Source of the DNA: a virus
Length of the DNA stretch: 64,000 nt
Reading direction: 5' to 3' (one strand)
Virus record (IMG/VR): IMGVR_UViG_3300002498_000005
Span: 1-64,000 of that record
Shown: piece by piece, positions 804-35,028 of the stretch
Numbering within the stretch: the first letter of the stretch is position 1
How the letters are laid out: each line of letters begins with the position of its first letter
Made by a program: the position numbers and the translations under genes
Notes under the pieces: model-generated
What the model was told of the DNA's origin: nothing
Databases searched by the model: none
The model's input: the letters and a program-made list of their open reading frames with translations, nothing else

Positions 804-827
804 TTCCTTCGTTATAAAATTCCTATT

Positions 828-1058
828 CTATTTACTCTCAATTAAGTTAATAATCTCTTCATACGTATAGTCTATCCCATCAAAATTAAATATTATGGTA
901 TCGCCCGTAGGATTTGTAAGATCAAATGGAGAAAATATACAATAATAATCCTCCCCGAAGGCATACCCAATCCCATCGGCGCAATGATTAATTACATCTG
1001 CGGGTATGTCCGTATGTCCATTTTTTAAATTAATTTTAAAATGCAGTATCGGTTTCAT
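828..1058 (-). CDS. Hypothetical protein
   Basis: RBS; stop inside site 815. Confidence 0.6.
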   Translation of the reverse strand: MKPILHFKINLKNGHTDIPADVINHCADGIGYAFGEDYYCIFSPFDLTNPTGDTIIFNFDGIDYTYEEIINLIESK

Positions 1059-1096
1059 TATATCCCCCTTTTTATTAAATAGAATCTACTTTTTAT

Positions 1097-1261
1097 TCAC
1101 CAATATCTATCCCTATAATGTCTAATCATCCATTCTGGGACATCTGGATAGAATATGGTTACATATCTATGAAATACACGATAAAGTTTAGAAGCTTTAA
1201 TTCTATGACCTTTATCCTCTTCTTCGGCAATCCATTTTGCCAACAGGTTTAAATCAATCAT
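1097..1261 (-). CDS. Small hypothetical protein (54 aa, not in ORF track)
   Basis: GAGGTG RBS, MIDLNLLAKW...YW*, fills the unit between sites 1080 and 1276. Confidence 0.55.
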   Translation of the reverse strand: MIDLNLLAKWIAEEEDKGHRIKASKLYRVFHRYVTIFYPDVPEWMIRHYRDRYW

Positions 1262-1295
1262 GATAACACCTCAAATAAAAATTTCATTTTATTCA

Positions 1296-1775
1296 TTAAA
1301 TCCAACCATTAAACTTTAGATTTTTCTTCCAGCACCTTAAACACCTTTTATTTTGAAACCAATTTTTTATTTTAATTATTATCTTCCTTAATTTAGTATC
1401 TTTTTTACAAGAATATTTTACTTCTAAATTTTTCATATGTTGTACACAATGCCCATATGTCACTATATTATCAATCTCTTTACTTGTGATATTTTCAAAA
1501 CATTCGCCCTTATCACCGAATATAGAACACTCCACTCCACATTTACCGCCCATCCCATTATAAAAACACTCATCACTACCACCATTTGTCGCCCATACGT
1601 CATAAGAATTTTCTTCTCGTTTTATACGCGGTTCTAACTCGGTTTCAATTCTAAATTCTGCGTGGCTTAAATTAGAATACATTATTTGACTTTCTTTTTC
1701 TAATTCATCTATTCTATCTCCGCGCTTGCGATAACTCCAGAGCAAATCATTATATTTTTCTTCCCAAGTATCCAT
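1296..1775 (-). CDS. Hypothetical Cys-rich protein
   Basis: AGGAG RBS; bounded by sites 1276/1791. Confidence 0.65.
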   Translation of the reverse strand: MDTWEEKYNDLLWSYRKRGDRIDELEKESQIMYSNLSHAEFRIETELEPRIKREENSYDVWATNGGSDECFYNGMGGKCGVECSIFGDKGECFENITSKEIDNIVTYGHCVQHMKNLEVKYSCKKDTKLRKIIIKIKNWFQNKRCLRCWKKNLKFNGWI

Positions 1776-1807
1776 TTATTCTCCTTTGATTAAAATTACA
1801 ATTTTAT

Positions 1808-2014
1808 TTACATTCTAGCGTTTAAAAATTCTCTTAAGCAATAAAACTCATATCCAACTTGTTTTAATAGACTATCTGGTTCTTTAAATTCACTTGCTTG
1901 AACCCATTTAAAATCATTGTTTATATAAATTAAAAACCAAACACCTGTAATATTATCTTTGGTATCATATATGGTATACATGGTATTATCTTTTTTATAT
2001 CTAGCCTCGAACAT
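1808..2014 (-). CDS. Hypothetical protein
   Basis: RBS; between sites 1791/2031. Confidence 0.6.
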   Translation of the reverse strand: MFEARYKKDNTMYTIYDTKDNITGVWFLIYINNDFKWVQASEFKEPDSLLKQVGYEFYCLREFLNARM

Positions 2015-2043
2015 TATTTCTCCTTCGTTATAAAATCAATATT

Positions 2044-2235
2044 TTAATTGTCATTATAATATATCATATCGGCAAGTACTTTTCTACATTCAGTACATAG
2101 ATGTACATTGGTTATATCTAATTTGATTTTTGGTCTAACTATTTCACCCCAATTTTGTTCATCTACCCAACAAGGAAACTCAAATGTCCTTTGGTCTGTT
2201 TCTGCATTACAAATATTACAAATATATTTAATCAT
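2044..2235 (-). CDS. Small zinc-finger-like protein
   Basis: CxxC...HLCxxC; stop in site 2031. Confidence 0.6.
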   Translation of the reverse strand: MIKYICNICNAETDQRTFEFPCWVDEQNWGEIVRPKIKLDITNVHLCTECRKVLADMIYYNDN

Positions 2236-4138: not shown

Positions 4139-4409
4139 TATGTGCTATAAATAGAACCCTCATTTTATTCAATTTTACCAACCCGATTTATATGTTTGTT
4201 CTTTCTTTTTCATTGCTGTGTCAAAACGTTTTTCAATTTTACGTTCTTGCTCTTTCTTTTTGCCAACTTCATTGCATACGTGACGGATAATAGAACTTGT
4301 TTTAGACATTCTTTAACCACTCCTTTTTATTTATACTTATCTATATTCAAAACTTTATAATAATATGACTACTATTTTGAATATATTTTTGAGTAGTTAA
4401 AATCCTCTT

Positions 4410-4625
4410 TTATCCTTTATATTTTAATATCAAAAATATAGGTACTACTATCATTAATAACGCTTCGCCAACAATACATATTTCGGGTAATACCCCATAT
4501 CCCGAAACCATACCTAATATTAATAACGCAGATATTGTTCCTGTTATTAATAGCATAATTAATAATTCTACTAACTGTCTTATTTGTTTGCCCATCGGGC
4601 TATCTCCTCCGTTTAAAACGCGCAT
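4410..4625 (-). CDS. Small two-TM membrane protein (true start likely MGKQ)
   Basis: Two hydrophobic segments; GGAGGAG RBS before internal ATG. Confidence 0.6.
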   Translation of the reverse strand: MRVLNGGDSPMGKQIRQLVELLIMLLITGTISALLILGMVSGYGVLPEICIVGEALLMIVVPIFLILKYKG

Positions 4626-4630
4626 TTTAT

Positions 4631-5122
4631 TTATATAGTAAAATATTCTATCCCTTTTAATTTATGGACTCTCTTGTGCTTAGACATAACCCATATCGAA
4701 TAGTCTTTATATGTTTGATTCATAGTGTCTTTAAGGGCTTGAAGCCTCTTGTCACTAGTTCGATTAAATATATCAACCTCTATCAAGATAACTTTATTCG
4801 ACTGCAATATCATAAGACAATCGACTTTAAAGGTTTTTACTTGAGCCTCACGCTCTATATATTTGATTTCGTCTTTGAGCTTTAAGGCAATATCATTAAT
4901 TACCAAACTATGGAAACTAGGTAATTTGTTGGTGTAGTATACTTTTTTGCCGAGCATTGGGTGTATATCTGCCTTTAATAAATTATTGTCAGTCAGCATC
5001 TTTAACCGATTCGCTGATGCCCTGTAACCAGAAAAGAAAAGTTGGGCAATTTGTTCAATGGTTGCGCCCTTATTGGTTTCAATCCATTTGATTATTTCGG
5101 AGTCTCTTTCCATCAATTTCAT
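4631..5122 (-). CDS. Replication-relaxation family protein (wHTH + PD-(D/E)xK nuclease-like)
   Basis: ERDSEII..TIEQIAQLFF..RLKML and D..ILIEVD motifs; coupled to FtsK-like gene. Confidence 0.7.
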   Translation of the reverse strand: MKLMERDSEIIKWIETNKGATIEQIAQLFFSGYRASANRLKMLTDNNLLKADIHPMLGKKVYYTNKLPSFHSLVINDIALKLKDEIKYIEREAQVKTFKVDCLMILQSNKVILIEVDIFNRTSDKRLQALKDTMNQTYKDYSIWVMSKHKRVHKLKGIEYFTI

Positions 5123-5874
5123 TTTTTTAACAACTCCAATATGCTATCAATATTATTGTCTTTAGGAGGCGTATTATCGTCTATAAGGCGCGGTTCTACG
5201 GTTTTAGCATTAATTATCATAGGTTTAAAGCGTTTGATTTTATCTCTTAGATATTGTTGAATTATCTCGTGACTTACAGTAAAACTATATCCAACTTGCT
5301 CATCTAATGTTTTACAGATAAACTGTCTCTCTTTTAAGTTAGTTGCATTACCATTTCCCAGTACTGCCATGCTAGATGGGAGATCAACAATCTTGAATGA
5401 TATTCGCGTACACAACTGGGCTTTAATATCAGTAGGAATGCTATCAGCAGTAGGCTTCTGAAGGCTGGTAATTAAAAATATCCCAGAGGCTCTCCCTACG
5501 TTTACTAACGTCTTGATATGTTTTAAACATTGAAATTTAAGAGCCTTTTCATCCTTACTATCCCCTTTTGATATATTTAAAAAGGAAAACTCATCTATAA
5601 CCACATAGGTATATTTTAGTTTATTAATAGTAAATTTATTATAATCTCCAATACTAAAATATCCTTTCGTATTATCAATTAATATTTCTCTTCTTCTACA
5701 TTCTTTATCTATTTTTTCTAAGCAAGCTAAGACATCTGGAAGAGATTTTGCAAACGTTTTGACATTTTGTGTATTGGCGAAAATCCCTAAATCATTTTTC
5801 CTAAGTTGTAACATATGTATTTCGGCATCTGTTTGTATTAAATTAGTTAGAATCTGGAGCAATAATCTGGATTT
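5119..5874 (-). CDS. FtsK/SpoIIIE-like ATPase, exon 2
   Basis: Begins KSRLLLQ (end of Walker A); YVVIDEF Walker B; GRASGI..QKP motif. Confidence 0.85.
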   Translation of the reverse strand, partial: KSRLLLQILTNLIQTDAEIHMLQLRKNDLGIFANTQNVKTFAKSLPDVLACLEKIDKECRRREILIDNTKGYFSIGDYNKFTINKLKYTYVVIDEFSFLNISKGDSKDEKALKFQCLKHIKTLVNVGRASGIFLITSLQKPTADSIPTDIKAQLCTRISFKIVDLPSSMAVLGNGNATNLKERQFICKTLDEQVGYSFTVSHEIIQQYLRDKIKRFKPMIINAKTVEPRLIDDNTPPKDNNIDSILELLKK

Positions 5875-6108
5875 CGATTTTGTTACCCTATAGGCTTTTT
5901 ATCCTATAGTTCTTACACTTTACCATTGTGTAAGTCCAGCATATATTTTCACCTTTAACTTAATAGTAAGGTGGCGGAGGCTCTTGGATGGATTGTTGCT
6001 TTCATATTAACGCTCACCATCTATGCGTTACATACTATATTAGATATTATAGCACTCGGTATTATCCAATTAATCGGAGGACTTCACCGAAACACTCCGC
6101 TAATAATC

Positions 6109-7065
6109 TTAAATATTACTATTTAAGACGGCAATAACTTTATCGTATTTACGGTCAAGATATATATTAGCATCAAAATACATATCTTTTATTAGCCTTT
6201 TACTATCAGAACAATTAATAGCCAAATTATGAACGTTAGTTGTTGATGTTTTTTTCTCTATTCTATGGTGCCCTATGTTGAATTTATTGATTGCCATATC
6301 TATAAAAGATTGAGTTGCCATAAAACTTAGCCCAAGAGACTTGGTACGTCTCACTAAAATATACCCGTCTGCATCCACGTATCCTCTTAAATAATGAATT
6401 AATAATCCGCTTGGTACTGCCGTACAAAACTTCAACATTTCTGTTTTTCTCGGTGCGACCCCTAGTTTTATCAAATCATTGCAAATCTTTGTATTATAGA
6501 TACAGATTCTACATGCTTCATATGTTTTATTAGTGGCTTTCAAATACACAGATTTTAATTTTATATTATTGTCGCTTATCCCAATGAATTTACAGAATTT
6601 TTTTAAATGGCTTATATCTTTTATCGCTAATGCTATTTCTAAATTCATAGATTTGACTTTGCCATCCCTTATGTGTTCGCATATACATCCGTCGGCAGAT
6701 ATAAAACCCAACCAATATGCCTTTTCTTCGCTGTTTATATTTTCAAACACATCTTCATTGTAAGTAAATTTAATACTTGAATTAGAAATAGTTTCGCCAC
6801 GACTTTTAATATAGTCTGATAAATCTCCGCGATTAATGTTTAATATTTTTTGAATTTCAGTAAGCGACTTTCCTTGTCTCCAGAGCATATACCCCTCTTC
6901 TTTTTTATTAGAAGCGTTAATATTATAAGCCCCATTTTCTATTCCAATACGCTTAATAACCCTTCTTGACGTAGTGGTTATTCTTTCTATTTCTTTTTGA
7001 CTTCGGTTTTGATTTATTAGTTCAATAATTTGATGCTCTAATTCTTCAGATATTTTTGCTGGCAA
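6109..7065 (-). CDS. Intron-encoded LAGLIDADG homing endonuclease
   Basis: YWLGFISADG and YLRGYVDADG motifs; N-terminal HTH-like repeats. Confidence 0.88.
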   Translation of the reverse strand: MPAKISEELEHQIIELINQNRSQKEIERITTTSRRVIKRIGIENGAYNINASNKKEEGYMLWRQGKSLTEIQKILNINRGDLSDYIKSRGETISNSSIKFTYNEDVFENINSEEKAYWLGFISADGCICEHIRDGKVKSMNLEIALAIKDISHLKKFCKFIGISDNNIKLKSVYLKATNKTYEACRICIYNTKICNDLIKLGVAPRKTEMLKFCTAVPSGLLIHYLRGYVDADGYILVRRTKSLGLSFMATQSFIDMAINKFNIGHHRIEKKTSTTNVHNLAINCSDSKRLIKDMYFDANIYLDRKYDKVIAVLNSNI

Positions 7066-8703: not shown

Positions 8704-9110
8704 TAGGAGGCAAATTTAATGTATAAAACTCGTCCACCATAAGGTGCAATTTTCTCGATGTTTCACTGAATAAAATATTACTTTTATTCATCTATATCCT
8801 TATATTCAATATTAATTTCATAAATACAATTACATTTTTTACATTTTTGCTTGCGATATAAAAACGGAAAACTATCATAGCATTCAATTTCATCCCCACA
8901 ATTAGGGCAAATATATTTTTTATATAAACTCATAATAAAACTCCTCATTTATTTACCACTTAACATTTTGTGTAACTGTTTCATTTGCCGTTTACGCAAT
9001 CTTTTAAGTTTAAACCTTTCCCACCAAGTTCTATTTATATCAATTGGGATTTCTAGTATTTCATCTCCAAGCACGATTTTAAGTTTTTTATCAATCTTTG
9101 CTTTACTCAT

Positions 9111-9314: not shown

Positions 9315-9602
9315 TATATAACCTCACTATTTATTTTAGTCGATGGTTGTCCCAGTTAAAATCTCGCTTTTATCTAATTAAATTTAAAAGTAATATTGGT
9401 ACGCTCATAAATATCCCAACAGATGAATTCATCTTATAAGATTCTTCATTTTTTATCATATTTATTAATGCCCAAATTTGTATTCCCAATAATAATGCCT
9501 GAATTAAATTAATAATACTAATCATATAGTTCCCCTTTAATTTATCTATTGTTTATGCTATACTATGAGAGGTATGTTTCCATACCAACCTCATTTTATT
9601 TT

Positions 9603-9635: not shown

Positions 9636-10079
9636 TTAATCTTCATAATTTTTATCAATAGCAATTACAATTCCATTTTCCATATATGGTTCATGATGTT
9701 GATAATTATTGACATATTCGTCACTCATAGGAAGATTATAGTGTTTACTGCCATTTTCATAATTTAAATTTATGGCACAAATATCTTTAACTGTATTAAT
9801 TCTTTTTTGAAATGTATCGTCATCCCATGCAGTTATATTGGAGACTTTTGAAATGTCCTTAATCCAAATATAAAACTCGCCAGCCGATTCATTTTCTGAT
9901 ACTTTGCCATTATGCCCACTATAAGCGTTAATACTAGCTGTAATTCCCCTTAAGAAGAAACATTGAATATTATCCATGCTGGTTTCAAATACTTCACAAT
10001 TTTCAAAAACAAAATCTATACTATTTAACATTTCGTTCATCTCAATTAAAACTTCCTTTTTATTTACATAATTCATCAT
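9636..10079 (-). CDS. Hypothetical phage protein
   Basis: GGAG RBS, 147 aa. Confidence 0.65.
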   Translation of the reverse strand: MMNYVNKKEVLIEMNEMLNSIDFVFENCEVFETSMDNIQCFFLRGITASINAYSGHNGKVSENESAGEFYIWIKDISKVSNITAWDDDTFQKRINTVKDICAINLNYENGSKHYNLPMSDEYVNNYQHHEPYMENGIVIAIDKNYED

Positions 10080-10329
10080 ATCTCCACGATTTATCGACCA
10101 ATGTAGTCCATAAATCTAAATCTCCAGCTTGGCAAATTACTCTTGGATTTCGACTAGACCACGGATCACCAAACTTAGCATACTTGTTATCTGTAATATG
10201 AATTCCAACATAAGCAACGCCTTTTGTGCCATCACTATAAGTAACTTCTTGTGGTTCATCTTCCATAATAAGTCCTATACATCCATATCCACAATATGCA
10301 ATACTACCTTTTTTACAAACTTTACTCAT
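10060..10329 (-). CDS. Hypothetical protein
   Basis: GAGG RBS. Confidence 0.6.
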   Translation of the reverse strand: MSKVCKKGSIAYCGYGCIGLIMEDEPQEVTYSDGTKGVAYVGIHITDNKYAKFGDPWSSRNPRVICQAGDLDLWTTLVDKSWRYDELCK

Positions 10330-10538: not shown

Positions 10539-10564
10539 TTCAATACCTCATTAAAATCCTTCTT

Positions 10565-10834
10565 TTATTCTTGATCAAGTTCTATTACATCTAAATTATT
10601 GATAAAATATTCGGTAACTTCTCCGAAGTAAATAATACAGACACCATCAGTAAATTTATCAAAAATGACCTTTGCATCTTCAAATTTATCCATAGCGCGT
10701 ATTGACTTTTCGACGACATTGTTTGTACCGCTATCCCAAACAAACAATTGCATAAGAGCATCTTGCCAATCTGTTGCTTCGATAATGCCTACGCTCTCAT
10801 AATTATCTTCAATAACATATAAAAATTTCTTCAT
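10565..10834 (-). CDS. Hypothetical protein
   Basis: Between sites 10552/10837. Confidence 0.6.
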   Translation of the reverse strand: MKKFLYVIEDNYESVGIIEATDWQDALMQLFVWDSGTNNVVEKSIRAMDKFEDAKVIFDKFTDGVCIIYFGEVTEYFINNLDVIELDQE

Positions 10835-11090: not shown

Positions 11091-11121
11091 AGCGATCCCC
11101 TTCTAATTAAAATTAGTTTTT

Positions 11122-11355
11122 TTATTTATAGTCTACGTCGGCATTATCAACAATCTTATTTAAAATTTGTTTAGCAAAATCCCTTCCCATAAATTCGGTA
11201 TCTAAAAACACTTTGCCGTTTTTATTTATTATTATGCCTAATTGTCCGAACCCTACGTTTGCGCTCCAATCAATATTTATAACTGTATTGTTGGGGAACC
11301 TAGTAGGTTGAAATGCTTCAATTTTATTTATTTCAATTTCATAGTCTTTGTCCAT
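11122..11355 (-). CDS. Hypothetical protein
   Basis: GAGGGG RBS. Confidence 0.6.
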   Translation of the reverse strand: MDKDYEIEINKIEAFQPTRFPNNTVINIDWSANVGFGQLGIIINKNGKVFLDTEFMGRDFAKQILNKIVDNADVDYK

Positions 11356-11387
11356 TAATACCCCTCGCTTACATTAAAATCGGTCTT

Positions 11388-11993
11388 TTATTTGTTTAGT
11401 AAAATTGTATATTTGTAATTAACCGTGAACGTATCGGTTCCACTCTGCTTATCACACCATTTATCTAAAAAATCTTGCAATTCTTGTTCGTCTACAATGT
11501 TTGAGTAAGCGTCTTCGTGCAATTCTTCACATGCTTGTTCTATAACATTACCAGCGTCAATTGAAATAATATCTTTAGTGGTAGACCACACATACTCTGG
11601 AATTCCAACATTATTATCATTACAATCATCAATTAACTCTTCTATATCTGAAAAATATCCCTCATTATAACTATAAGATTCTGAAAATAGCATTTCCTTA
11701 TGATCGTCTGGTACTTCTTCATAATTTGCTTTAATGGCTTTATCAAATCTATTTCGTTCTGATTTTATAGAATCAAATTTTCTACATTGCGGATTTTGGC
11801 ACATACCCCTCTTTGGCTGGTGACATATCGGACATAATGTTAAAACACCATCATAACAAACTGGACATTTTTCAATATATCCTCTTTTTGTATCTTGAAG
11901 CCATCCGATTCCGCCACATGTATCGCACAATATTTCATTTTCTTTTGGCTCTTTTGGTAGTAGTTGAATTTTGTCTACTATTTTATCTAACAT
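11388..11993 (-). CDS. Zinc-finger (CxxCxGxG) protein with acidic C-terminus
   Basis: CDTCGGIG, CPVC, CPIC motifs. Confidence 0.65.
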   Translation of the reverse strand: MLDKIVDKIQLLPKEPKENEILCDTCGGIGWLQDTKRGYIEKCPVCYDGVLTLCPICHQPKRGMCQNPQCRKFDSIKSERNRFDKAIKANYEEVPDDHKEMLFSESYSYNEGYFSDIEELIDDCNDNNVGIPEYVWSTTKDIISIDAGNVIEQACEELHEDAYSNIVDEQELQDFLDKWCDKQSGTDTFTVNYKYTILLNK

Positions 11994-12024
11994 GGTTTTA
12001 TTCCTTTCGATTAAAACTAATCAT

Positions 12025-12243
12025 TTATCTACAAATTTTAAATTTGTTTTCTGGTACTTTAAATTCTTCATTATTTTTATCATAAAAATGGCAACCGCTA
12101 AACTTATTATTATATAAGAAACAATCATCTGGCAATTTTATCTTTATATGATTTTCTGTCAGTTTCATATCTGCGCCTATAATAACACTAAATTTTAATT
12201 TTATTAATAATTTACATAATATCGTACCTAATAATATCCTCAT
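12025..12243 (-). CDS. Hypothetical protein
   Basis: Between sites 12012/12255. Confidence 0.5.
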   Translation of the reverse strand: MRILLGTILCKLLIKLKFSVIIGADMKLTENHIKIKLPDDCFLYNNKFSGCHFYDKNNEEFKVPENKFKICR

Positions 12244-12267
12244 AATTTACCCCTTAAAACTTTTATT

Positions 12268-12495
12268 TTAATCATTTTTTATAACATCAGTTACAGTTAA
12301 TTCAACAAGCTCCCATTTAGAACATTGTTTTTGATAACTAGGGATACTATTATAATGCTTAAGAGCCGTTGATTGATTTTTAAAAACAAGCTTCTTATTA
12401 TAATCGTATGTTTTAAGGCAACTATCCTCTAAAATAGCATAAAATTTGTTCATTATAGACTCCCTTTTATAAACTTTGAACTCAATATATCCCAT
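12268..12495 (-). CDS. Hypothetical protein (start likely MNKF)
   Basis: AGGGAG before internal ATG; stop in site 12255. Confidence 0.55.
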   Translation of the reverse strand: MGYIEFKVYKRESIMNKFYAILEDSCLKTYDYNKKLVFKNQSTALKHYNSIPSYQKQCSKWELVELTVTDVIKND

Positions 12496-12844: not shown

Positions 12845-13030
12845 CTATTCATAATCTTCTATAATCATTGTAAGTGCTCCAAACCCAATACCAGCTATTA
12901 CCATCATTATCATTCCTGCCCAAAATAAGTCCTTATAAATTAGAATCCCACCAAAACTAATAAGTAAAGTGATTACCAATTGTAGAAACCCCGTTATAAT
13001 ATATTTTCTCATAATATCTCTTTCCTTCAT
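12845..13030 (-). CDS. Small two-TM membrane protein
   Basis: Hydrophobic segments. Confidence 0.55.
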   Translation of the reverse strand: MKERDIMRKYIITGFLQLVITLLISFGGILIYKDLFWAGMIMMVIAGIGFGALTMIIEDYE

Positions 13031-13037
13031 AAAATAG

Positions 13038-13286
13038 TCATTTTAATTCATAATCTCTGTCAAAAAGTTCCCAAAGAATTTTCGAACTCTTTTCGCCTAT
13101 AAGCTTAACGCTTGCTTCATATGAATCCTTTTGGTTAGCGTTATCAATTAATTTGGTTACTATATGGTTTAAAAGCGTTTCCACTTCATCTAAATTATTC
13201 AGTGCTTTCGCATCAATATTTGATTCACCATGAGATATATAAGTACCAACTAACTTATCAACTATTTCTGTAATTTCTAATTGCAT
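13038..13286 (-). CDS. Hypothetical protein
   Basis: GAGGG RBS. Confidence 0.6.
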   Translation of the reverse strand: MQLEITEIVDKLVGTYISHGESNIDAKALNNLDEVETLLNHIVTKLIDNANQKDSYEASVKLIGEKSSKILWELFDRDYELK

Positions 13287-13652: not shown

Positions 13653-13681
13653 TTAATCCCCCTTAATTTAAAACAGACATC

Positions 13682-14167
13682 TTATTCTTTATTATTTAAC
13701 CATTGTTGTGCAAACAATTCGTCCATTGCTTCATTAACTAAGGCATCGGCACGATTGTTCCCATCGTTGTTAGCATGTCCCACACATTTTGTAAAAGAAA
13801 TTTCTCTGAACTCATTCTTTAATTGCACAAGCCGTTGCCATAGTTCTTTATTTTCAACTGGCTTTTTATCAGCCTTACGCCAACCCTTTTTAATCCAATT
13901 ATCTACCCATTGATTAATGCCAGTAATTACATATTGACTGTCCATAACTACTTCGGTTATTATAGTCTTATCCCTGATAGCTTCTAGCCCCTTAATACAA
14001 GAAGTAAGCTCCATTATATTGTTGGTGGTATTCCTAGTAGCCCCTTTTAATTCTTTGATTAGTTGCCCAGAATTATAGTTTAAAACTACGCCCCAACCGC
14101 CAATATTGTTATCTTTACTTTGATTATTGCGACATCCCCCGTCAGCCCACACTTGAATTAAATCCAT
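13682..14167 (-). CDS. rnhA: Ribonuclease HI
   Basis: ADGG, TTNNIMEL, DSQYV, W..KGW..PVENKELW, GH..GNNRADAL. Confidence 0.93.
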   Translation of the reverse strand: MDLIQVWADGGCRNNQSKDNNIGGWGVVLNYNSGQLIKELKGATRNTTNNIMELTSCIKGLEAIRDKTIITEVVMDSQYVITGINQWVDNWIKKGWRKADKKPVENKELWQRLVQLKNEFREISFTKCVGHANNDGNNRADALVNEAMDELFAQQWLNNKE

Positions 14168-14356
14168 ATGACCTCCTAAAATAAAACAGTAAATTTATTT
14201 ATCCTTTTTATTTTTTGTATCTCTAAATATAAAAAACCAAATTAAAAAATATCCTAATGATATGATTACAATATATCCCAAAAAACTAATAATATCTTTT
14301 AATATAAGCCCAATAGCTATACCCCACATATTTACACCTCATATTTTTAAATTTTG

Positions 14357-14498: not shown

Positions 14499-14533
14499 AT
14501 ATTTAACTTATTCTTCTAAATAAAACATAAATT

Positions 14534-15550: not shown

Positions 15551-15578
15551 TTATTTTCTCCTAATTAAAAGTATGATT

Positions 15579-20746: not shown

Positions 20747-20775
20747 TATTTTATCCCCTAATTAAAATTCTAATT

Positions 20776-21675
20776 TTATTGATACATTGCATTTTGTAAT
20801 TGCTCTTTACTTATATTAAATGCGCCCTTTTCAGCCGCTTCTATATCTCTTTCGTCTATAAGGTGTTCGAGATATCTTTTAGTAGTTTTAACATCCTTCT
20901 GTCCTAATCTGCGCCCTATGGTTAAAATATCATTTCCTTGCGATCTAAGCATAGCGGCACATGTATGACGCAATTTATGCGGAGTTATTTTTTTGTTAAT
21001 TTCCGCTCTTTTAGCGATGCGCTCCACCAACCCATAGATGCCAGATGTGCTGTATTGTCTTTTCATATTAGATATAAACAAGTATTCTATATCATCATTT
21101 CTTGTATCAAGATATTCATTTATGGCTTCAGCAGTATGAGACCCAACAGCTAACACTCTTTCTATATTACCCTTTTCTATAACTCTTAGCCTTTTGCCAT
21201 CCCAGTCTGTTTTCTTCAAATTACATAATGCAGATTCACGCATTCCAGTATCAAGAAAAGTTATCATAAGCGCATAATTCTTTATTGATTTAGATGCTTC
21301 ATTTAAAAACTGTAACCCCTCATCAATCGTCATATGTACTGATAATCTCTCTGGTATTTTTCTAATTTTCTTAAAAGTTTTTTTGTGTATAATAGGGCAA
21401 TTGTCTGTTATGCCACTTTCATTTAAAAACTTATAGAAATTATTGATTGCCATAAACCGTCTGTTAGCAGTAGCAGGAGAATCTAACTTTAGAAAACCAT
21501 CAACGTCTTCAGTTGTTATTTCTTCAGGATTTTTGCCAACAACATCTAAAAATTTAACTATATCATTACAATATGACTCAATCGTATAGATTGAATTAAT
21601 CCCAGCAGATGATTCACAATTTCTTAAATTTTTAAGTTCATTTTTATATTGATTTACATAATCATTCATCGACAA
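20776..21675 (-). CDS. Tyrosine recombinase (XerC/D-like)
   Basis: SAM-like N-terminus; TGMR, KG, HKLRH, LGQ..TTKRY. Confidence 0.9.
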   Translation of the reverse strand: MSMNDYVNQYKNELKNLRNCESSAGINSIYTIESYCNDIVKFLDVVGKNPEEITTEDVDGFLKLDSPATANRRFMAINNFYKFLNESGITDNCPIIHKKTFKKIRKIPERLSVHMTIDEGLQFLNEASKSIKNYALMITFLDTGMRESALCNLKKTDWDGKRLRVIEKGNIERVLAVGSHTAEAINEYLDTRNDDIEYLFISNMKRQYSTSGIYGLVERIAKRAEINKKITPHKLRHTCAAMLRSQGNDILTIGRRLGQKDVKTTKRYLEHLIDERDIEAAEKGAFNISKEQLQNAMYQ

Positions 21676-22627: not shown

Positions 22628-22814
22628 TAGAGACCTCCTTTAATTTGAAATAAAATTCCCCATTTATTTTTTTTGTTTACAATACATATATATAATTACT
22701 GCCATCATAATGGCTAATAAAATTAGCCCACAAATTATTTCTTTTAAATATATTCCAACCAAACACAAAATTGCCGTTGACATTTTTATAATCCTTTCAA
22801 TTAAAACCTAGATT

Positions 22815-23045
22815 TTATTTATCTTTTTCAATAAGTTTGTCCCAATATTTGTCTTCTTTTTTAAAGTGTCTTTTAAGTAATATTTTTATTATCCAATGCG
22901 GAAGAAGTGAATGTTTGCAAGGTGAATATATATCTTTTTGCAAGATACACTCCTCTTCGAATTCATCATAATTAAACGACATACGATAAAAAGCAGGGCA
23001 TGTTTCACATCTCTTCTCCATTGTGTCGTATAATTTATCTAACAT
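22815..23045 (-). CDS. Hypothetical protein
   Basis: Stop in site 22802. Confidence 0.55.
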   Translation of the reverse strand: MLDKLYDTMEKRCETCPAFYRMSFNYDEFEEECILQKDIYSPCKHSLLPHWIIKILLKRHFKKEDKYWDKLIEKDK

Positions 23046-24907: not shown

Positions 24908-24937
24908 TATTCTACCTCTCCAAATAAAATCTCGAAT

Positions 24938-25150
24938 TTATTCACACGTATATGCAACCCAGCCATTGTTGTATCTATCTAGTTGTAGGTAAATTGGCAT
25001 TTCAGAGCCAAGGCTATAAAATACTGCGTATCCGTATTCCCAACAGCTTGCCACTTCCATACATCCAATATCTTTTGCGCTTTCTATCCAAACAGGAGAA
25101 CCAACCATCTGCTCTAATTTATCTAACGGAATTATACCTTTCCCTTTCAT
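24938..25150 (-). CDS. Hypothetical phage protein
   Basis: L.QMVGSPVWI..WVAY pattern; GGAGG RBS. Confidence 0.6.
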   Translation of the reverse strand: MKGKGIIPLDKLEQMVGSPVWIESAKDIGCMEVASCWEYGYAVFYSLGSEMPIYLQLDRYNNGWVAYTCE

Positions 25151-25218: not shown

Positions 25219-25298
25219 TATTTTGGTAACATTTTAAGATAAAAAATATATGATAGAACATACGTTTTATTCTTTATGCGTTAAAATAATATTTTTAT

Positions 25299-25508
25299 TT
25301 AAAATAAGTTCGCATCATTCTCTTCGCAAGTATATTGTTGTAAATCAATATCCCAATCTAAGTCTTCGCCAATATTACCATCATTTTTACAATTGTTATA
25401 ATATATTAAGAATGGGCTTCCACAACATCCACATCCACCAATCTCAATATGATATTTAATCGTTAACGCTGATAACTCAACTAAAAATTCTTTTAATTTA
25501 AAATCCAT
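25299..25508 (-). CDS. Hypothetical protein
   Basis: GGCGCCGSP motif; between sites 25282/25526. Confidence 0.6.
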   Translation of the reverse strand: MDFKLKEFLVELSALTIKYHIEIGGCGCCGSPFLIYYNNCKNDGNIGEDLDWDIDLQQYTCEENDANLF

Positions 25509-25752
25509 TTCTATCTCCTTCCAAATAAAACAACGGTTTTAACTATCAATATCTTCTACAATAAGTCTCACCCTAGTTTTTTCTCCAACATATCCAGTTA
25601 ATAACTGTGCATTAACTAAAACATTATATAAATCTAAATATTGCCCATCATCTGTATCAATATATAATTCGCCATCGTGCCCTGCATATAAGTCCCCACT
25701 TAATTCTATTTTCATGTTTTTATTCCTTTCGTCTTCGGTTAAAACGACCCTT

Positions 25753-26229
25753 CTATTCATATTGTTCTTTATATCGCTTTTCTTTTTCAAGATTGTCTCT
25801 TTGCCACTTTAACGCTCCCTGTGCCTTCCTCCTTCTAATTGGGTTTTGAAAAAAGGCATAGGAGGCTTTAATATCATCAGCTAAAGTCGGTGTTTTTTTA
25901 GCACTTTGTTTTTTGGGCAATTTTTTAGTTTTTTGTTTTGATTTTTTTGGATTGTGCAGAACTAACGGTGGCTCTGGTAAACCTTTAACGTGCCTATATT
26001 CCTCCTCTGTTAAAGATGCCTTTTCTCGGTTACAATCCAAACAACATACTCTTAAATTCCGTGGGATAGTCTCTCCCCCACGACTTAATGGGGTTAGGTG
26101 GTCGATTGTGCATTCTTTTTTTGTTAATGACTTTCCACAGTAATAACATCTTAATTCAGAGCTATCCTTAATTTTCTTTATTGACGTTTTGTATTTGCTA
26201 CGACCCCTTACTCTTTGTGCCTCAGTCAT
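25753..26229 (-). CDS. HNH endonuclease
   Basis: CYYCG..TIDHLTPLSRGG..NLRVCCLDCNREK. Confidence 0.88.
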   Translation of the reverse strand: MTEAQRVRGRSKYKTSIKKIKDSSELRCYYCGKSLTKKECTIDHLTPLSRGGETIPRNLRVCCLDCNREKASLTEEEYRHVKGLPEPPLVLHNPKKSKQKTKKLPKKQSAKKTPTLADDIKASYAFFQNPIRRRKAQGALKWQRDNLEKEKRYKEQYE

Positions 26230-27176: not shown

Positions 27177-27194
27177 ATAAAATTGCTTTTTTAT

Positions 27195-27989
27195 TCAATC
27201 TAAATATTTTTCTGCTTCTTCCTGTTGGTCTCTGTCTATATAATAACCATATAAGAAATCTTTTTGTCTTTTTGTTAATGGTTTAATACTACTTGACGTT
27301 ACCATCGCTAATCCTTGCGTAGGATTATGAAGTAATACAAACCCTTTTGCATAAACAAGAAAGTCTCCTTTTGAACCACACCCGAAAGGAAGTTTTTCAT
27401 TATAATCCATATATTCATATTTGAGTCTATTTTTATTTACGTAGTCATCTGCCCAATCTTGATGGTCTCCAAAATCAGAAGGATAAAATTCGCCCTGTGG
27501 AGATAGCCAACCATAGTTATCATTATATCTTTGCGCTTTTAAAAAATTATCAAGTAAATCATCGCCATCTGTAGAAAAGTCTCGCACCGACTTATAACTT
27601 TTATCAAGTTGAGCTTCAGCTTCATCGGCTCTTTTATATGAAGATTTAAGAGTATTTGTTAATGTTTTAAAAAGTGAAAGTGTAACATTATCGTCTTCAA
27701 CGCCATAGGTATCGTTTCTTGTATTACCTGTTAGCTTTTGTTTACCTATTATAATATTTGACGCTATCTCTTTGCGCTGATCTATGGACAAACTATCGGA
27801 CACTAGACAATCTAATAGTAATTCCTCAACTACCTCATAAGGCTTTCCTTCTTTGTAAAACCATGAACGAACAAGTTCTGTTATATAATCGCCCGATATA
27901 TCAAATGTAACGGTTTTATATTCTTTGCCTGTTTGCTCATCAACCTCAAACCCATCATTATCTATTAAATTCATTTCTAATACCTCCAA
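27195..27989 (-). CDS. Hypothetical phage protein
   Basis: 264 aa; GWLSPQGEFY..H motif. Confidence 0.7.
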   Translation of the reverse strand: MEVLEMNLIDNDGFEVDEQTGKEYKTVTFDISGDYITELVRSWFYKEGKPYEVVEELLLDCLVSDSLSIDQRKEIASNIIIGKQKLTGNTRNDTYGVEDDNVTLSLFKTLTNTLKSSYKRADEAEAQLDKSYKSVRDFSTDGDDLLDNFLKAQRYNDNYGWLSPQGEFYPSDFGDHQDWADDYVNKNRLKYEYMDYNEKLPFGCGSKGDFLVYAKGFVLLHNPTQGLAMVTSSSIKPLTKRQKDFLYGYYIDRDQQEEAEKYLD

Positions 27990-28230: not shown

Positions 28231-28986
28231 TCATGCTCGTTTATCCTCGCTTATGCTCAACATAAATGTCAATAAAATCCCCATTTTATTTCAGTATTAA
28301 TTTAATTTGTTCATCAAGTATTTTTAATTTTATATCAAACGTTTTATATCTTTCTATTGACCTTTTTGTTTTCATGCCCTTATAAAAGATTTTTGCATTC
28401 TTTACTGCTTCCTCATAATCGTTCTGCTGAATATTATAAGCAATTAATTTATAAAAATTATCTAAAAATTCTTTCATATTATATAACTCCTTCGGGTGGC
28501 ACAATAGTTGTGCTGTTATACTGTTTCGGGCAAGGATAGCAGTCAAAATATCTATCACAATCATCAACTTGTACTTTTAAAAGGTCGCAGATACATGTAT
28601 AATCGTCAATACTCATATCCCAAATATGAAAATGGACACAGTCTTTGCCCCAACAATCTTTTGGAAATTTATCGCTCATATTTTTATCCTCTCGTGGCAT
28701 AGTTTTCTCGCTGTTACTTTGTTTATTTTATTTGAACAAGAGTAAGACTTTGAATGCGTTCTCTGTAATAACCAACAATTATATTAGGTGAACCTTGAAT
28801 ATGCGTAGAGAGCTTATCTCCATTTACTAATTCCATTTCTATATGCCATTGTTGATCCCAACAGTCATAATTATCCTTTAAAATCGTAGACATCTCACAT
28901 AACAAACACTTGTTATCCATAATATTAACCTCATCATAAGTAAAATTATTTATATTTTTGCATTTATATTTATGTCAACAAGGCTG

Positions 28987-30157: not shown

Positions 30158-30549
30158 GGATTAACCCTCCTTTATTTCGTAACCAATCACATCAACAACA
30201 TCTTTATCAAAAAACTCTGCAACCTCTTTTGATTCTTTCCCATATTTGTGTTCTAAGCAATCAAGCATAAATTCTAAGTCCTTATATTTTTTTGTTCTTC
30301 TATCCGCTATTTCAGCCATAAACTTATAAACCTTCATATTATAAAACCTCCATTTTATTTAGCATTCTTGTTCTTCTATTCCATAAATTACAATTGAGCT
30401 TTCATGGTCAACCTTGCTCTCCGATATAATTTTATAAAATCTAGCTAACGCTTCGTCTTTTGTTTCGTCTTCGTTCATTGTTAGATAAAATCCCATGTGT
30501 ACATATAATTCTTTTTCTTTCATCGTGGCACAGCTCTCTTTCTGTTATA

Positions 30550-30840: not shown

Positions 30841-31261
30841 TTTTAAATCTCCTAATCTTTAATACCTTTGCTGTTATACTATATCTCAACCCCAAAAGGG
30901 ATTTCAATATTATTTGTTTTTAAGGTCTCAATAATTTCTATATATCTTTTTTCTTCTTGCTCCGTTAGGTTGATATCTTTATCTTGCTTATGGACATAAT
31001 CTGAAAGTTCGTCTAATAGTTCGTCAAAATTATATATCATAATCAATTCTCTCCTTCTAATTAAAAGCTTCATTTTATTAAGATTCCATATCATACATTT
31101 TAAAATCTTCATCATCTTCTGGGTTTAACAACATTGTTGTCATATAGTTCCCGTTATCAATAATATCTTGAATAATATAACCATTTGAAATATCTTCCCA
31201 TATTGCTTGCATCTGTATTAAATTTGTTTTAAATTCTTTTTCCATGAATAAAAACCTCCTT

Positions 31262-31507
31262 TTATTCACTTATATTGTAAAATTCATCTATTATATAATA
31301 ATCGCTAAATGTTTCTATAGCTCGGATTATACTGCTTTCTAAAGTGTCTCCCATTCTTTCTAATTCCCATATACCATTGACATTTACAAATTCGTCAGTA
31401 TACGTTATTTCCCAAACCTTATCAAGCAAAACAGGCTTATCAAATTTGCTTTTTCTTATTTTGTTTTTTATCGTTTCTAATTCTGTTTCTGTTAAGGTTA
31501 TATCCAT
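31262..31507 (-). CDS. Hypothetical protein
   Basis: AGGAGG RBS; stop in site 31249. Confidence 0.6.
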   Translation of the reverse strand: MDITLTETELETIKNKIRKSKFDKPVLLDKVWEITYTDEFVNVNGIWELERMGDTLESSIIRAIETFSDYYIIDEFYNISE

Positions 31508-31862: not shown

Positions 31863-32240
31863 TTACTCTATATCTTCGCATGTCATTTCGATATCTTCTT
31901 CGTCTTGCTCCTCCTCTTGAAATATTACGGTGCAACCATAATAATTTTCTTCGTCTCCGTCTGTCATACCTTCTAATTCGTCTATTAAATTTGTTCGTTC
32001 TCCGTCTTGATAATCGCTAAAACCGCAGTCATAAGCTATTTCGTCTACGCTCTTAAAGGCTTGTGATGCGCTGTAGTCTATTCCGCATATGTTTACGTCT
32101 CCAAAACAATCGTCTAGCATGTTATCATATTCGTCTTCGTCTATGTAATCTATTAAATAGTCTCCTGCTTCGTCTGCTGTATTAAATTCTTCTGTGCCGT
32201 CTATAATATATTTTGCCATTTCTGTTATACCTTCTTTCAT
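31863..32240 (-). CDS. Very acidic protein, candidate DNA mimic
   Basis: D/E-dominated sequence; first gene after promoter 32257-32285. Confidence 0.6.
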   Translation of the reverse strand: MKEGITEMAKYIIDGTEEFNTADEAGDYLIDYIDEDEYDNMLDDCFGDVNICGIDYSASQAFKSVDEIAYDCGFSDYQDGERTNLIDELEGMTDGDEENYYGCTVIFQEEEQDEEDIEMTCEDIE

Positions 32241-32256
32241 TATTTATTATAGTATT

Positions 32257-32285
32257 AGTATACCATGTTATATATAGTATGTCAA
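32257..32285 (-). promoter_or_regulatory. sigmaA-type promoter
   Basis: TTGACA-17-TATACT with TG. Confidence 0.7.
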
Positions 32286-32443
32286 TACTATATATAAAAT
32301 ATTCTTAAATATTTTTCTGTTATCCAATGCTATTTTTAATCCCTACAATGATTGCTGTTATGCCTATTAGCGCATCTATAGTCAATAATATTTTTGCTTT
32401 TCTTGTCAAGACTGTTTCCTTCTTTCGTGATAAAATATTCTTT

Positions 32444-32704
32444 TTAATCGTTTCCAAGTATGTCATTAGGATTAATATGTAATATTGAAGCGATAACCCT
32501 AGCTTTTATTAGGCATTCTTCTTGTTGCTTCTCCAGTTTGGATTCTTCTTTTGTGCCGAGTATATCACCGTTCCAAGCCTGTATAGTTTTTCTATAAGCT
32601 GTTTTAAACGCTAAGTATGCTTGCTTTAAATCATTTTCTTTTAAGCAAATATGCCCTATATTTTCACAAACTTTTGCATTTTCATTTTCTAAATTATATT
32701 TCAT
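32444..32704 (-). CDS. Hypothetical protein
   Basis: Between sites 32431/32748. Confidence 0.55.
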   Translation of the reverse strand: MKYNLENENAKVCENIGHICLKENDLKQAYLAFKTAYRKTIQAWNGDILGTKEESKLEKQQEECLIKARVIASILHINPNDILGND

Positions 32705-33056
32705 TTTTACCCTTCTTTCATGAGCGACAAAACTGTCGCTGTTATAATAAAATCTGTTTTTTATTCTGTTATTTGATCTTTAAATTTATCATATAATAAT
32801 AAAAAGGCATATGTTATAGTATAATAATTATCTTTCATAGTCTCGAACCCTTTTCTTAGTTCTATCATATCTTCGAAATGATTATCATTAAATTTTATTA
32901 GGTCAATAGCTTCGTTAATGGTTTCTTTTTCGTATTCCTTAAACGTTTTTTTTATTTCCTTTCTTGCTAAACTGCATATAGTTTGCTGTTACTGCATATA
33001 TTATATAGAATATAATGCACCTATTTTGATTTTTGCCTTTTAAAATGCTTATTTTA

Positions 33057-33308
33057 TTAAAAACTTAATGCAGATAGATTTTTTTGTAATCCCCTACATA
33101 CAATATTAATCCAACAATCTGGTGTATCATCATAACTTGATTGAATATAAACTTCTACAACTGTAATTTTTGACAAGTCTATTTTTTTAATTGCTGTCGG
33201 CAATGAAATCATATTATATTTGTTGTTTACATCTACAACGTTTATAGTGTAATCATTTTGGTTTAATACTTTTACTAACGTATTTAATTGCATTTTATAA
33301 CCCTCCAT
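33057..33308 (-). CDS. Hypothetical protein
   Basis: GGAGGG before internal ATG. Confidence 0.55.
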   Translation of the reverse strand: MEGYKMQLNTLVKVLNQNDYTINVVDVNNKYNMISLPTAIKKIDLSKITVVEVYIQSSYDDTPDCWINIVCRGLQKNLSALSF

Positions 33309-33665
33309 GTGTGACAGCTTGCTTGCTGTTACGCTATTTTTTTATTTAAGGCTGTTAAGCACTTATTGAAAAACATTAATATATAATGTTCTCCGTAAAC
33401 GCTTTAAAATGTTACGTTGTTGTATTGTTTTTGCGTTATTTCGCCATTTTTACATAAGCTATCTATAAAATACGACCATTCCAATTGAACTTTGCAATAA
33501 TCGTCTTTTCTAGCTTTACGGTATGCGTTATAATCTCCGTTGTATATCTCATTAATAAACCTACTTTTTATAGTCATTTATAAACATCTCCATATTTTTA
33601 TTTAATGCCTAAAGCACTCTATATTATATATTGCTTGCTGTTATACAATATATAATAACAACGCT

Positions 33666-34079
33666 TTAATTTGTACGATATATATAATATTCTCCTTCTT
33701 CGATTTCTTCCCCGTCATATCCGCTCAAAAAATGCCCTCTGCCGTCTGCTTCAACTGCGTCCGAAATAAATTCGTCAAGGTCTATTATAATTGCTTTTAC
33801 AATTTCGTTTGCATTTTCGCAAAGTTCGCTTTGCATTGTTTGAAACGCTTTTAGTGTTTTCTCTGTATAATTCTCTAAATTAGAATGATCGAGTATAAAG
33901 TCTGTATTAAATGCCCACAATAATTCTTTTATTTCTTCGCTTGTTTTGTCTTCTGCTTCTTCATCTGTTAATACTAAAAATTCGCCTTGTTCTGTTTCAA
34001 AATTATTATTATCATATCCGTTTTTTATTTCTGTTTCTTCAATGTTTAAAAATTTTGCTAATGCTTCTATTTTGTTCAT
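33666..34079 (-). CDS. Acidic hypothetical early protein
   Basis: E/D-rich; DGRGHFLSGYDGEE. Confidence 0.65.
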   Translation of the reverse strand: MNKIEALAKFLNIEETEIKNGYDNNNFETEQGEFLVLTDEEAEDKTSEEIKELLWAFNTDFILDHSNLENYTEKTLKAFQTMQSELCENANEIVKAIIIDLDEFISDAVEADGRGHFLSGYDGEEIEEGEYYIYRTN

Positions 34080-35028
34080 GATAAAACCTTCTTTTTATTT
34101 ATTAATAGTCATGAGCTATATTTTGCTAGCTGTTATAGACTATTTTATAATTCGCTTTGTCGGTCATTGACTGCAACAAAGCAAACTGGTAAAATATTCT
34201 AACTTTGTTCTGCTCCTTCCTTTTTTTTTGTTATATGTATATATTCGCCATAACTTTTTAAAATCCTGCTTATTTACAAAATTTACATTTTATTTTATTT
34301 TATTGACTTGGATATTTTCAATTTTGCATTGTTCTATTAGTCCTTGCCATATTGGATAGATTGCAAATTTTTCTTTTGCTTCCTTGCAAGTTTTGCTTTG
34401 TGTTGTACTGCAAACATAGTTATTATTATAATAAATGTCAATTTTTTTCATGTTCTTTCCCTTCTTTCCTGTTAAAATAGATATTTTATTTCGTGAGCTA
34501 CAAAATATTTTCTGTTACGTGAGCTATGCAAGGTCGGCTGTTACCTATAGGCAATCCGACAAGGTTAATCAGTTGATTAGTATGTTGGTTCATTAGTCAA
34601 GTAACTAACTAAAATTTTACATATTAATAAGTGACTTTTAATTCGCAAACATTACAATTATAACGTGTAACCATATTATCATTATTAGTAATTAAGTAAC
34701 CATTACAGCTAGTAGTAATACTTTTAATATTCCACAATGTAATAAAATGCCTTTTAAAAAATGTGCCTTTTTTAAAAACTTCAACAATCATTTTTTATAT
34801 ACCTTCTTTATTTTATTAATAATCATTAGATTATTTTAACTAGCATACTAACATCAGTATGCTATAAAAGCAATCTAGCCAATTATTAGCCACATTTCAA
34901 TATAGGCAATATAAACACATGCAAGAACTAGCATAAAACATAATGCACCATTAATATAATATAATGGGCTGTCTTGTCTTACTCTGTACTTTTTCATTTT
35001 TTACACCTCATTTTTTTAATTTTTTCTG

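Follow-up and report, generated by a model that had tools for sequence, protein, structure and literature searches.

The first 64,000 nucleotides (nt) of IMG/VR virus record IMGVR_UViG_3300002498_000005, a sequence of 100,348 bp estimated to be 67% complete, are punctuated by a short palindrome, TAAAA-N6-TTTTA, that recurs at the ends of genes. This stretch is called the window below, and the virus the window phage. The palindrome array is real and is common to the SPbeta-like phage group. On sequence evidence, and with a probability that we put at roughly 0.55, its copies are barcoded crossover sites at which related phages would exchange genes in register, probably through a tyrosine recombinase of the YomM type. 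In the window, 1-39 kb (the accessory arm) carries about 95 small minus-strand genes and is followed by structural genes on the plus strand.

We counted 33 perfect copies in the window, compared with 1.93 +/- 1.38 in dinucleotide shuffles, none of 100 of which reached 33; the whole record holds 46, as against 3 for a backwards control. Only the N6 spacing is enriched, since every other spacing from 0 to 15 gave at most 6 copies. The initial annotation, made from the letters alone, had noticed 28 perfect and about 20 near-perfect copies between 815 and 34488. In that interval we find 29 perfect copies, and the accessory arm has about 22 one-mismatch copies at gene junctions. The eleven stop codons that it had placed on the palindrome (828, 2044, 10565, 11388, 13682, 14534, 17912, 20776, 22815, 25539 and 28286) are all correct, those at 828 and 13682 sitting on one-mismatch copies. 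The enrichment holds when it is conditioned on the stop codon and on AT content: among genes whose stop reads TAAAA, 21 of 41 have TTTTA at +11, and no more than one has it at any other offset from 5 to 21.

Of the copies in the window, 16 perfect and 13 one-mismatch ones overlap a stop codon according to crude gene calls; 12 and 11, respectively, fall between genes, and most others are found 3-7 nt behind a stop. Between a site and the start codon that follows there are 2 to about 25 nt, and the ribosome-binding site (RBS) sometimes lies within the centre; consequently, the site is anchored on the end of the upstream gene and not on the start of the downstream one. The sites are present on both arms and continue beyond 64 kb. 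They are listed here by position in the window, with no strand assigned to the sites themselves; the sign in brackets is the strand of the neighbouring gene or open reading frame (ORF).

1276-1291, perfect site, centre ATTTCA (+ strand), 7 nt past the stop of ORF 1296-1775 (-)
1791-1806, perfect site, centre TTACAA, 4 nt past the stop of 1808-2014 (-)
2031-2046, perfect site, centre TCAATA, begins on the stop of 2044-2235 (-)
4614-4629, perfect site, centre CGCGCA, 4 nt past the stop of 4631-5122 (-)
8771-8786, perfect site, centre TATTAC, on the stop of 8784-8948 (-)
9357-9372, perfect site, centre TCTCGC, on the stop of 9370-9525 (-)
10047-10062, perfect site, centre CTTCCT, on the stop of 10060-10329 (-)
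10552-10567, perfect site, centre TCCTTC, on the stop of 10565-10834 (-)
11375-11390, perfect site, centre TCGGTC, on the stop of 11388-11993 (-)
12255-12270, perfect site, centre CTTTTA, on the stop of ORF 12268-12495 (-)
13030-13045, perfect site, centre TAGTCA, overlaps the stop of 13038-13286 (-)
14521-14536, perfect site, centre CATAAA, on the stop of 14534-15211 (-), an HNH endonuclease
15566-15581, perfect site, centre GTATGA, on the stop of 15579-15773 (-)
17071-17086, perfect site, centre ACTATA, at the end of ORF 17077-17322 (-)
17899-17914, perfect site, centre GCGTCG, on the stop of 17912-18700 (-)
20763-20778, perfect site, centre TTCTAA, on the stop of the recombinase gene 20776-21675 (-)
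22802-22817, perfect site, centre CCTAGA, on the stop of 22815-23045 (-)
25282-25297, perfect site, centre TAATAT, just past the stop of ORF 25299-25508 (-)
25526-25541, perfect site, centre CAACGG, on the stop of ORF 25539-25790 (-)
27178-27193, perfect site, centre TTGCTT, 4 nt past the stop of 27195-27989 (-)
28273-28288, perfect site, centre TCCCCA, on the stop of 28286-28567 (-)
30342-30357, perfect site, centre CCTCCA, which holds the next gene's RBS (GGAGG, - strand); next ATG 4 nt past the site
31062-31077, perfect site, centre GCTTCA, directly past the stop of ORF 31078-31269 (-)
31249-31264, perfect site, centre ACCTCC (holds an RBS), on the stop of 31262-31507 (-)
32431-32446, perfect site, centre TATTCT, on the stop of 32444-32704 (-)
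32748-32763, perfect site, centre TCTGTT, intergenic
33041-33056, perfect site, centre GCTTAT, directly past the stop of 33057-33308 (-)
34082-34097, perfect site, centre CCTTCT (holds an RBS), 2 nt before the start of 33666-34079 (-)
34473-34488, perfect site, centre AGATAT, intergenic on the - strand reading
44474-44489, perfect copy of doubtful function, within a RuvC-like gene
57377-57392, perfect copy of doubtful function, within ORF 57042-57590 (+)
60288-60303, perfect site, centre TACATA, upstream bracket of the recombinase operon, 2 nt past the stop of 59948-60286 (+), NrdR-box block next
61725-61740, perfect site, centre GTGCCA, 29 nt past the recombinase stop; 5' half of a terminator-like hairpin
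815-830, one-mismatch copy on the stop (TAG) of 828-1058 (-)
4397-4412, one-mismatch copy on the stop of 4410-4625 (-)
8936-8951, one-mismatch copy on the stop of 8949-9110 (-)
11108-11123, one-mismatch copy at the stop of 11122-11355 (-)
12012-12027, one-mismatch copy on the stop of 12025-12243 (-)
13669-13684, one-mismatch copy on the stop of the RNase H gene 13682-14167 (-)
14182-14197, one-mismatch copy on the stop of 14195-14329 (-)
15969-15984, one-mismatch copy on the stop of 15982-16221 (-)
16542-16557, one-mismatch copy overlapping the stop of 16550-17014 (-)
24925-24940, one-mismatch copy on the stop of 24938-25150 (-)
25740-25755, one-mismatch copy on the stop (TAG) of the HNH gene 25753-26229 (-)
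34277-34292, one-mismatch copy on the stop of 34290-34451 (-)

The palindrome is shared by distant SPbeta-like phages (SPbeta, E3, PBC2 and Perkons). Perfect copies were counted in these and other phage genomes, beside a control.

This record (G000): 46 perfect sites, 3 in the control
SPbeta: 34 perfect sites, 2 in the control
Geobacillus E3: 30 perfect sites, 7 in the control
PBC2: 23 perfect sites, 1 in the control
Perkons: 17 perfect sites, 2 in the control, plus 10 TGAAA-N6-TTTCA
G004 (IMG/VR): 60 perfect sites, 4 in the control
G003 (IMG/VR): 28 perfect sites, 9 in the control
Sundance: 0 perfect sites, 4 in the control
G006: 0 perfect sites, 0 in the control
phiL47: 7 perfect sites, 7 at the best other spacing, hence no enrichment
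G005: 9 perfect sites, 12 at the best other spacing, hence no enrichment
G007: 3 perfect sites, weak at most
G008-G012: 0-6 sites (stricter 18-mer pattern), 1-3 in the control

The arms are identical in the window phage and in SPbeta, although only 8 of 177 ORFs of the window phage match SPbeta by tblastn, a recombinase among them; the reader of the sites must therefore be a very conserved protein. Our search of the SPbeta literature found no description of the palindrome. The SPbeta GenBank record labels some copies as stem_loops (for example 2622-2651 and 116406-116431).

In the direction of the genes the consensus reads A-W-TAAAA-(T)NNNN(A)-TTTTA-W-T. The palindrome thereby gains one base per side, positions 0 and 17 being A or T in all 46 copies. 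Two inverted arms around a 6-bp centre match the layout of a tyrosine-recombinase core site, which has a centre of 6-8 bp; the initial annotation had recognised this anatomy, and the sites are built like the core site of a single-recombinase Xer-type system. Compensated double mismatches were found in 21 of 378 two-mismatch windows, about the estimated chance level, and for this reason we take the arms to be read as sequence and not as a hairpin. Thus the site is best described as a two-fold symmetric double-stranded DNA site, W-TAAAA-N6-TTTTA-W, with the symmetry expected for reading by a dimer, and not as an RNA hairpin.

The centres follow a rule of their own. Across seven array-bearing genomes no centre is duplicated within a genome, either directly or inverted (2.2 and 2.1 expected), and none of the 238 centres is palindromic (5.2 expected, Poisson p ~0.006). 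That all centres are different and asymmetric speaks against recombination between two sites of the same genome. Strand exchange that is directional and partner-specific needs such centres, and they are of no use to a regulator.

Gene replacement at the sites was followed in five Spbetavirus genomes by comparing SPbeta with Goe11, SPR, SPbetaL7 and BUCT082, and the figures in this paragraph refer to that genus. Alignments ended within 10 bp of a perfect site in 42 of 268 cases, compared with 0.9% at random, and 21 of the 34 SPbeta sites carried a breakpoint. Breakpoints were present at 20 of 26 site-bearing gene junctions and at 71 of 181 others (odds ratio 5.2, p = 3e-4); in the accessory arm alone the figures were 17 of 20 and 47 of 107 (p = 6e-4). 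Per relative, 22-26 SPbeta centres recurred in the same orientation and order, compared with 0-1 in a reverse-complement control; order breaks numbered 0-1, and the single ones fit a different record start. For 16 site-genome pairs both flanks were unrelated (no tblastx similarity within 600 bp on either side), and 26 more pairs showed similarity on one flank only. When sequences were anchored on the site, identity dropped from 100% over the 16 bp to about 30-40% within 1-3 bp outside it. The initial annotation had asked whether breakpoints fall inside the 6-bp core; they lie within 1-3 bp of the site edge. Moreover, the centres at breakpoint sites were identical in both genomes, so that the tolerance of non-homologous cores it had borrowed from Tn916-type integrases is not needed. 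These alignments indicate that the genes around the sites are replaced, while the sites, with their centres, stay in fixed slots.

The record encodes two tyrosine recombinases.

60668-61696, + strand: YomM-family tyrosine recombinase, 342 amino acids (aa), candidate site reader (Pfam PF00589/PF13495)
20776-21675, - strand: Xer-type tyrosine recombinase, 299 aa, second and weaker candidate (Pfam 3e-29), within the accessory arm

Both keep the catalytic set R-K-H-R-H/W-Y, except that Q replaces the second His in the 299-aa protein. The 342-aa protein lies amid tail genes, is 30% identical to its SPbeta homologue YomM, and has R172, K202/K204, H278, R281, H282, W304 and Y313 invariant in 16 homologues. 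Its fold is that of a two-domain recombinase, with XerA, IntI4, Tn1549 Int, Cre and XerH as the best PDB matches. The family numbers more than 1,600 proteins; homologues come mostly from metagenome-assembled genomes of Bacillota such as Clostridium, Tissierellia and Ruminococcus. Sites 60288 and 61725 bracket the gene, and homologues were found in six of six array-bearing genomes. The 299-aa protein matches XerA (1e-43) and XerD (1e-26) by profile, and R146, K168, H233, R236 and Y268 are invariant in 5 sequences. Its family is rare (29 matches), and tblastn found no homologue in SPbeta. We infer that the YomM-type 342-aa enzyme is the best candidate for the reader of the sites.

Two loci with related recombinases show breaks next to this gene. 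In one of them (L056, recombinase 65% identical) a site stands directly past the recombinase stop, followed by an extra gene of about 480 bp and then by a GTGCCA-centred site. The window lacks this extra gene; homology resumes at 61724, and the window's own GTGCCA site begins on the next base, 61725. In the other (L055, recombinase 73% identical) homology stops at the site directly past the recombinase stop.

We propose the following mechanism. A dimer of the phage tyrosine recombinase would bind both arms and cut at the edges of the 6-bp centre, and strand exchange would be completed only with a partner site of the same centre. Sites of one genome should not recombine with each other, because each centre is different and non-palindromic; deletion, inversion and shuffling would thereby be avoided. 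A competent partner would be the site of the same number in a related phage or prophage residing in the same cell, giving in-register chimeras, and over time the genes between sites would be replaced while the sites and their order were kept. Catalysis by a tyrosine recombinase, the YomM-type enzyme as reader, and the carry-over of the SPbeta-genus result to the window phage are the parts of this scheme that we infer. In its widest form, which we put forward only tentatively, the array would be a genome-wide network of 20-60 addressed crossover points, through which a YomM-type recombinase swaps accessory genes between sites of the same centre, with no need of flanking homology and with gene order kept.

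Several observations weigh against in-register exchange at the sites. The key comparison was made on SPbeta-genus genomes and not on relatives of the window phage's accessory arm. In searches for such relatives, megablast and blastn against phage records matched only an RNA-ligase fragment, IMG/VR and metagenome scans with the terminase and the 299-aa recombinase gave distant loci only, and one full 16-mer site used as query had three matches, all chance. Exchange can do without the sites, since a perfect site is missing from 71 of the 91 SPbeta junctions that carry breakpoints. Of 16 junctions in hybrids made in the laboratory from SPbeta and phi3T, 15 were reported to lie in homologous regions (bioRxiv 10.1101/2020.05.06.055103), which shows that ordinary homologous recombination operates as well; the one non-homologous junction, 'after yosA', lies near SPbeta site 116415. 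Between genera, including the window phage compared with SPbeta, G004 and G003, centres are shared only at chance level. The three centres common to the window phage and SPbeta were set aside as chance, two being in opposite orientation and one inside a helicase gene, and we reject for the window phage the idea that centre addresses are conserved across genera. Where both flanks are vertically inherited, centres change at 3.3%, compared with 4.8% for flanks and 1.0% for arms, and no extra selection on the centres is visible there. The conserved arm is merely 6-7 bp long; Cre and XerCD arms are 11-13 bp. The link between enzyme and site is circumstantial. The YomM family is far wider than the arrays, as G005, G006, G007 and G008-G012 have a homologue (49-57% identity) and few or no sites, and no protein was confined to the array-bearing genomes at tblastn E <= 1e-4.

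Some of these points would suit the main rival reading, which we consider unlikely: the sites could be operator-like or architectural sites of a symmetric dimeric protein (a silencer, an insulator, a stoperator-like roadblock or a nucleoid protein), with breakpoints coinciding because the sites are short conserved islands, via microhomology-driven or selected exchange. Two-fold symmetry and invariant arms fit any dimeric binder, and the SPbeta recombinase-fold protein MrpR acts purely as a repressor (PMC10516654). Vertically inherited centres that evolve no slower than their flanks, the many breakpoints at site-less junctions and the occurrence of the YomM family without arrays also favour a binder of this kind. 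However, a separate centre for every site would be of no use to a regulator, and the centres outlast the replacement of both flanks in the 16 pairs described above, never repeat within a genome and are never palindromic. For exchange driven by homology, 16-18 identical bp are few. The site of MrpR, SPBRE, differs in sequence from the palindrome, and all ten MrpR peaks in chromatin affinity purification sequencing (ChAP-seq) lie at SPBRE promoters (PMC10516654). No HU-like gene was found in the 100-kb record, and an HU-like reader is rejected on that ground. Nor do the sites follow promoters. Four perfect extended sigma-A promoters (TTGACA, 17-18 nt spacer, TG-TATAAT; 7121-7092, 4138-4110, 3636-3608 and 46-17, all on the minus strand) are predicted to drive the minus-strand arm; they are scattered over 1-20 kb, are far outnumbered by sites, and none is at a site.

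Far less probable is the integron-like system that the initial annotation had put forward, in which site-to-site units are excised as circles and re-inserted or shuffled by a recombinase tolerant of non-identical centres. The units are indeed small: 48 junction copies in 1-35 kb define 47 intervals, 21 of which hold one gene, 10 two and 5 three. The sites stand at the 3' ends of genes, promoters are few, locus L056 has one extra unit between two sites, and IntI4 is among the structural neighbours of the 342-aa recombinase. Against this, the four SPbeta relatives all keep the sites in strictly collinear order, with no sign of shuffling, all centres within a genome differ, and the sites are perfect palindromes of 16-18 bp. 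Self-BLAST found no site-bounded repeats within the genome, and no array end with integrase, attI and Pc turned up, although no attI or Pc search was made; the recombinases lie in the tail genes and in mid-arm. Hence the recombinase part of the annotation's cassette reading is supported, with its core-site anatomy, two tyrosine recombinases and, in the SPbeta genus, replacements that begin and end at sites, whereas excision, re-insertion and shuffling of cassettes are not supported. The least probable alternative, for which we see hardly any room, is an RNA element at cistron ends (a UAAAA-N6-UUUUA hairpin or sequence for mRNA processing, stability, or translation termination and re-initiation): the strict stop-codon link and the place ahead of the next RBS suit it, but the hairpin is rejected because five A-U pairs make a very weak stem and compensatory changes are not above chance, the symmetry reaches the flanking bases on both sides whatever the direction of transcription, some sites (60288, 61725) are placed between convergent or non-coding stretches, and centres that survive gene replacement would be left unexplained.

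It has long been asked how mosaic phage genomes come to have unrelated genes joined precisely at gene borders. In these phages such joints are marked by a short and strictly defined DNA site, and its 34 copies in the genetically tractable model phage SPbeta make the proposal directly testable. If true, in-register exchange at barcoded sites would account for the rapid turnover of accessory and counter-defence genes across a large group of Bacillota phages, and co-resident phages could swap any accessory gene, including anti-defence and RNA-repair genes. Module boundaries in metagenomic phage genomes could then be predicted by rule, a set of orthogonal recombination sites sharing one arm pair would become available, and the old 'linker sequence' idea for phage mosaicism would take enzymatic form.

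Other features of the sites and of the window were recorded. A block of about 75 bp containing NrdR-box-like palindromes follows site 60288 (60304-60370; CACAAAAGACACTA.ATAT.GTGGT ... ATATAGTATGC) and recurs inverted at 96595-96690 of the record, between sites 80 bp apart at 96595 and 96675. The terminator-like hairpin at 61722-61775 (AAAGTGCCA ... TGGCACTTT, then a T-rich run) has site 61725 as its 5' half and is conserved in L056. The variant arm TGAAA-N6-TTTCA is enriched in Psychrobacillus phage Perkons (W03), with 10 copies compared with 1.6 expected (ATGAAA form, 8 compared with 0.23), and is weak in the 45%-GC phage G007 (6 compared with 0.6), where some copies overlap start codons; a search for variant palindromes in the array-less relatives gave just such weak TGAAA-N6-TTTCA signals. 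The large contigs G008, G009 and G010 (146-209 kb, behind loci L101, L108 and L109) have the recombinase family and 1-6 sites, and all three carry the same 18-mer, ATAAAATCAAGATTTTAT, which could be the single primary site of an enzyme of this family.

The terminase, portal, tape measure, DNA polymerase and tail-region recombinase of the window resemble those of SPbeta-like siphoviruses (22-41% aa identity). A trio resembling RNA-repair genes (17912-20527, minus strand), composed of a nucleotidyltransferase, an ATPase like polynucleotide kinase/phosphatase and an RNA ligase, is bounded by sites 17899 and 20763 and may counteract anticodon nucleases of the host. An FtsK/SpoIIIE-like ATPase fragment (5119-5862) adjoins an endonuclease ORF (6109-7065; together 5119-7065, minus strand). 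An HNH endonuclease lies amid the tail genes (55708-57045, plus strand), a GIY-YIG homing endonuclease near the arm junction (37029-37742, minus strand), and a RepL-like ORF at 36406-36888.

Several known systems resemble the array in part. The stoperators of cluster A mycobacteriophages (L5 gp71 sites) are asymmetric 13-mers that point in the direction of transcription and are recognised by the immunity repressor. Like the phage sites, they are dozens of short intergenic sites near stop and start codons genome-wide; unlike them, they lack a variable centre and are not reported to be linked to breakpoints, and the phage site is two-fold symmetric instead of asymmetric in one orientation.

SPBRE comes from the same phage group. 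It is a 15-bp element in promoter regions bound by MrpR (YopR) of SPbeta, a protein without recombinase function (PMC10516654). It shares with the palindrome the character of a repeated intergenic element, and it has a recombinase-fold reader. Derived from the ten ChAP-seq promoters, SPBRE is ACAAATACAAAnAATATGTATA; in SPbeta (NC_001884) it reads ACAAATACAAA(A/T)AATATGTATA, 20-90 bp before start codons, with copies upstream of yorE, aimR, yonT, yonP, yonX, yorZ, yosX, yopV and yopM. The palindrome is another sequence, whereas SPBRE is promoter-associated with about ten copies, and the MrpR peaks are not at palindromes. We therefore reject the idea that the two are the same element, since their sequences differ.

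The promoter-early stem-loop (PeSL) cassettes of T4-type phages (Arbiol et al. 2010, PMC2839356) resemble the array in that a short element is repeated between small, non-essential genes of plastic genome regions and marks insertion, deletion and replacement events between relatives. PeSL, however, joins a strong sigma-70 promoter to a terminator stem-loop and recombines by homology, with mini-circles; the phage site has a variable centre, measures 16-18 bp and holds no promoter hexamers.

Integrons share with the array a site at the 3' end of mostly promoterless small genes, the IntI4 fold neighbour and a tyrosine recombinase, which is the kind of enzyme proposed for the phage. The attC site is an imperfect folded palindrome of about 57-141 bp with R and L boxes and extrahelical bases, recombined as a single strand, whereas the phage sites have perfect arms and no extended pairing.

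The pdif sites of Acinetobacter plasmids are asymmetric XerC/XerD sites in alternating orientation, served by host enzymes. Like the array, these dif modules put many Xer-type sites on one replicon, flanking small accessory modules that differ between relatives (PMC6449649, PMC13141974); in the phage, 31 of the 47 intervals hold one or two genes. The modules have been reported to shuffle (PMC6449649, PMC13141974), in contrast to the phage array with its fixed order, unique centres, palindromic arms and phage-encoded candidate enzyme.

The closest known site to the palindrome is difH, the XerH site of Helicobacter and Campylobacter, TGAAAA-N6-TTTTCA, in which four A's are essential (PMC3325230; structures 5jjv, 5jk0). 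Both have inverted palindromic arms ending in A4/T4 around a 6-bp centre, and difH is served by a single recombinase. The base before the A-tract is G in difH and T in the phage site, and Perkons also uses TGAAA. By sequence and by fold, XerH is one of the neighbours of the 342-aa recombinase, although the protein similarity is weak (E 2e-4). While difH occurs once per chromosome and acts with FtsK in dimer resolution, the phage sites number 30-60 per genome, each with its own centre, and stand on the ends of genes.

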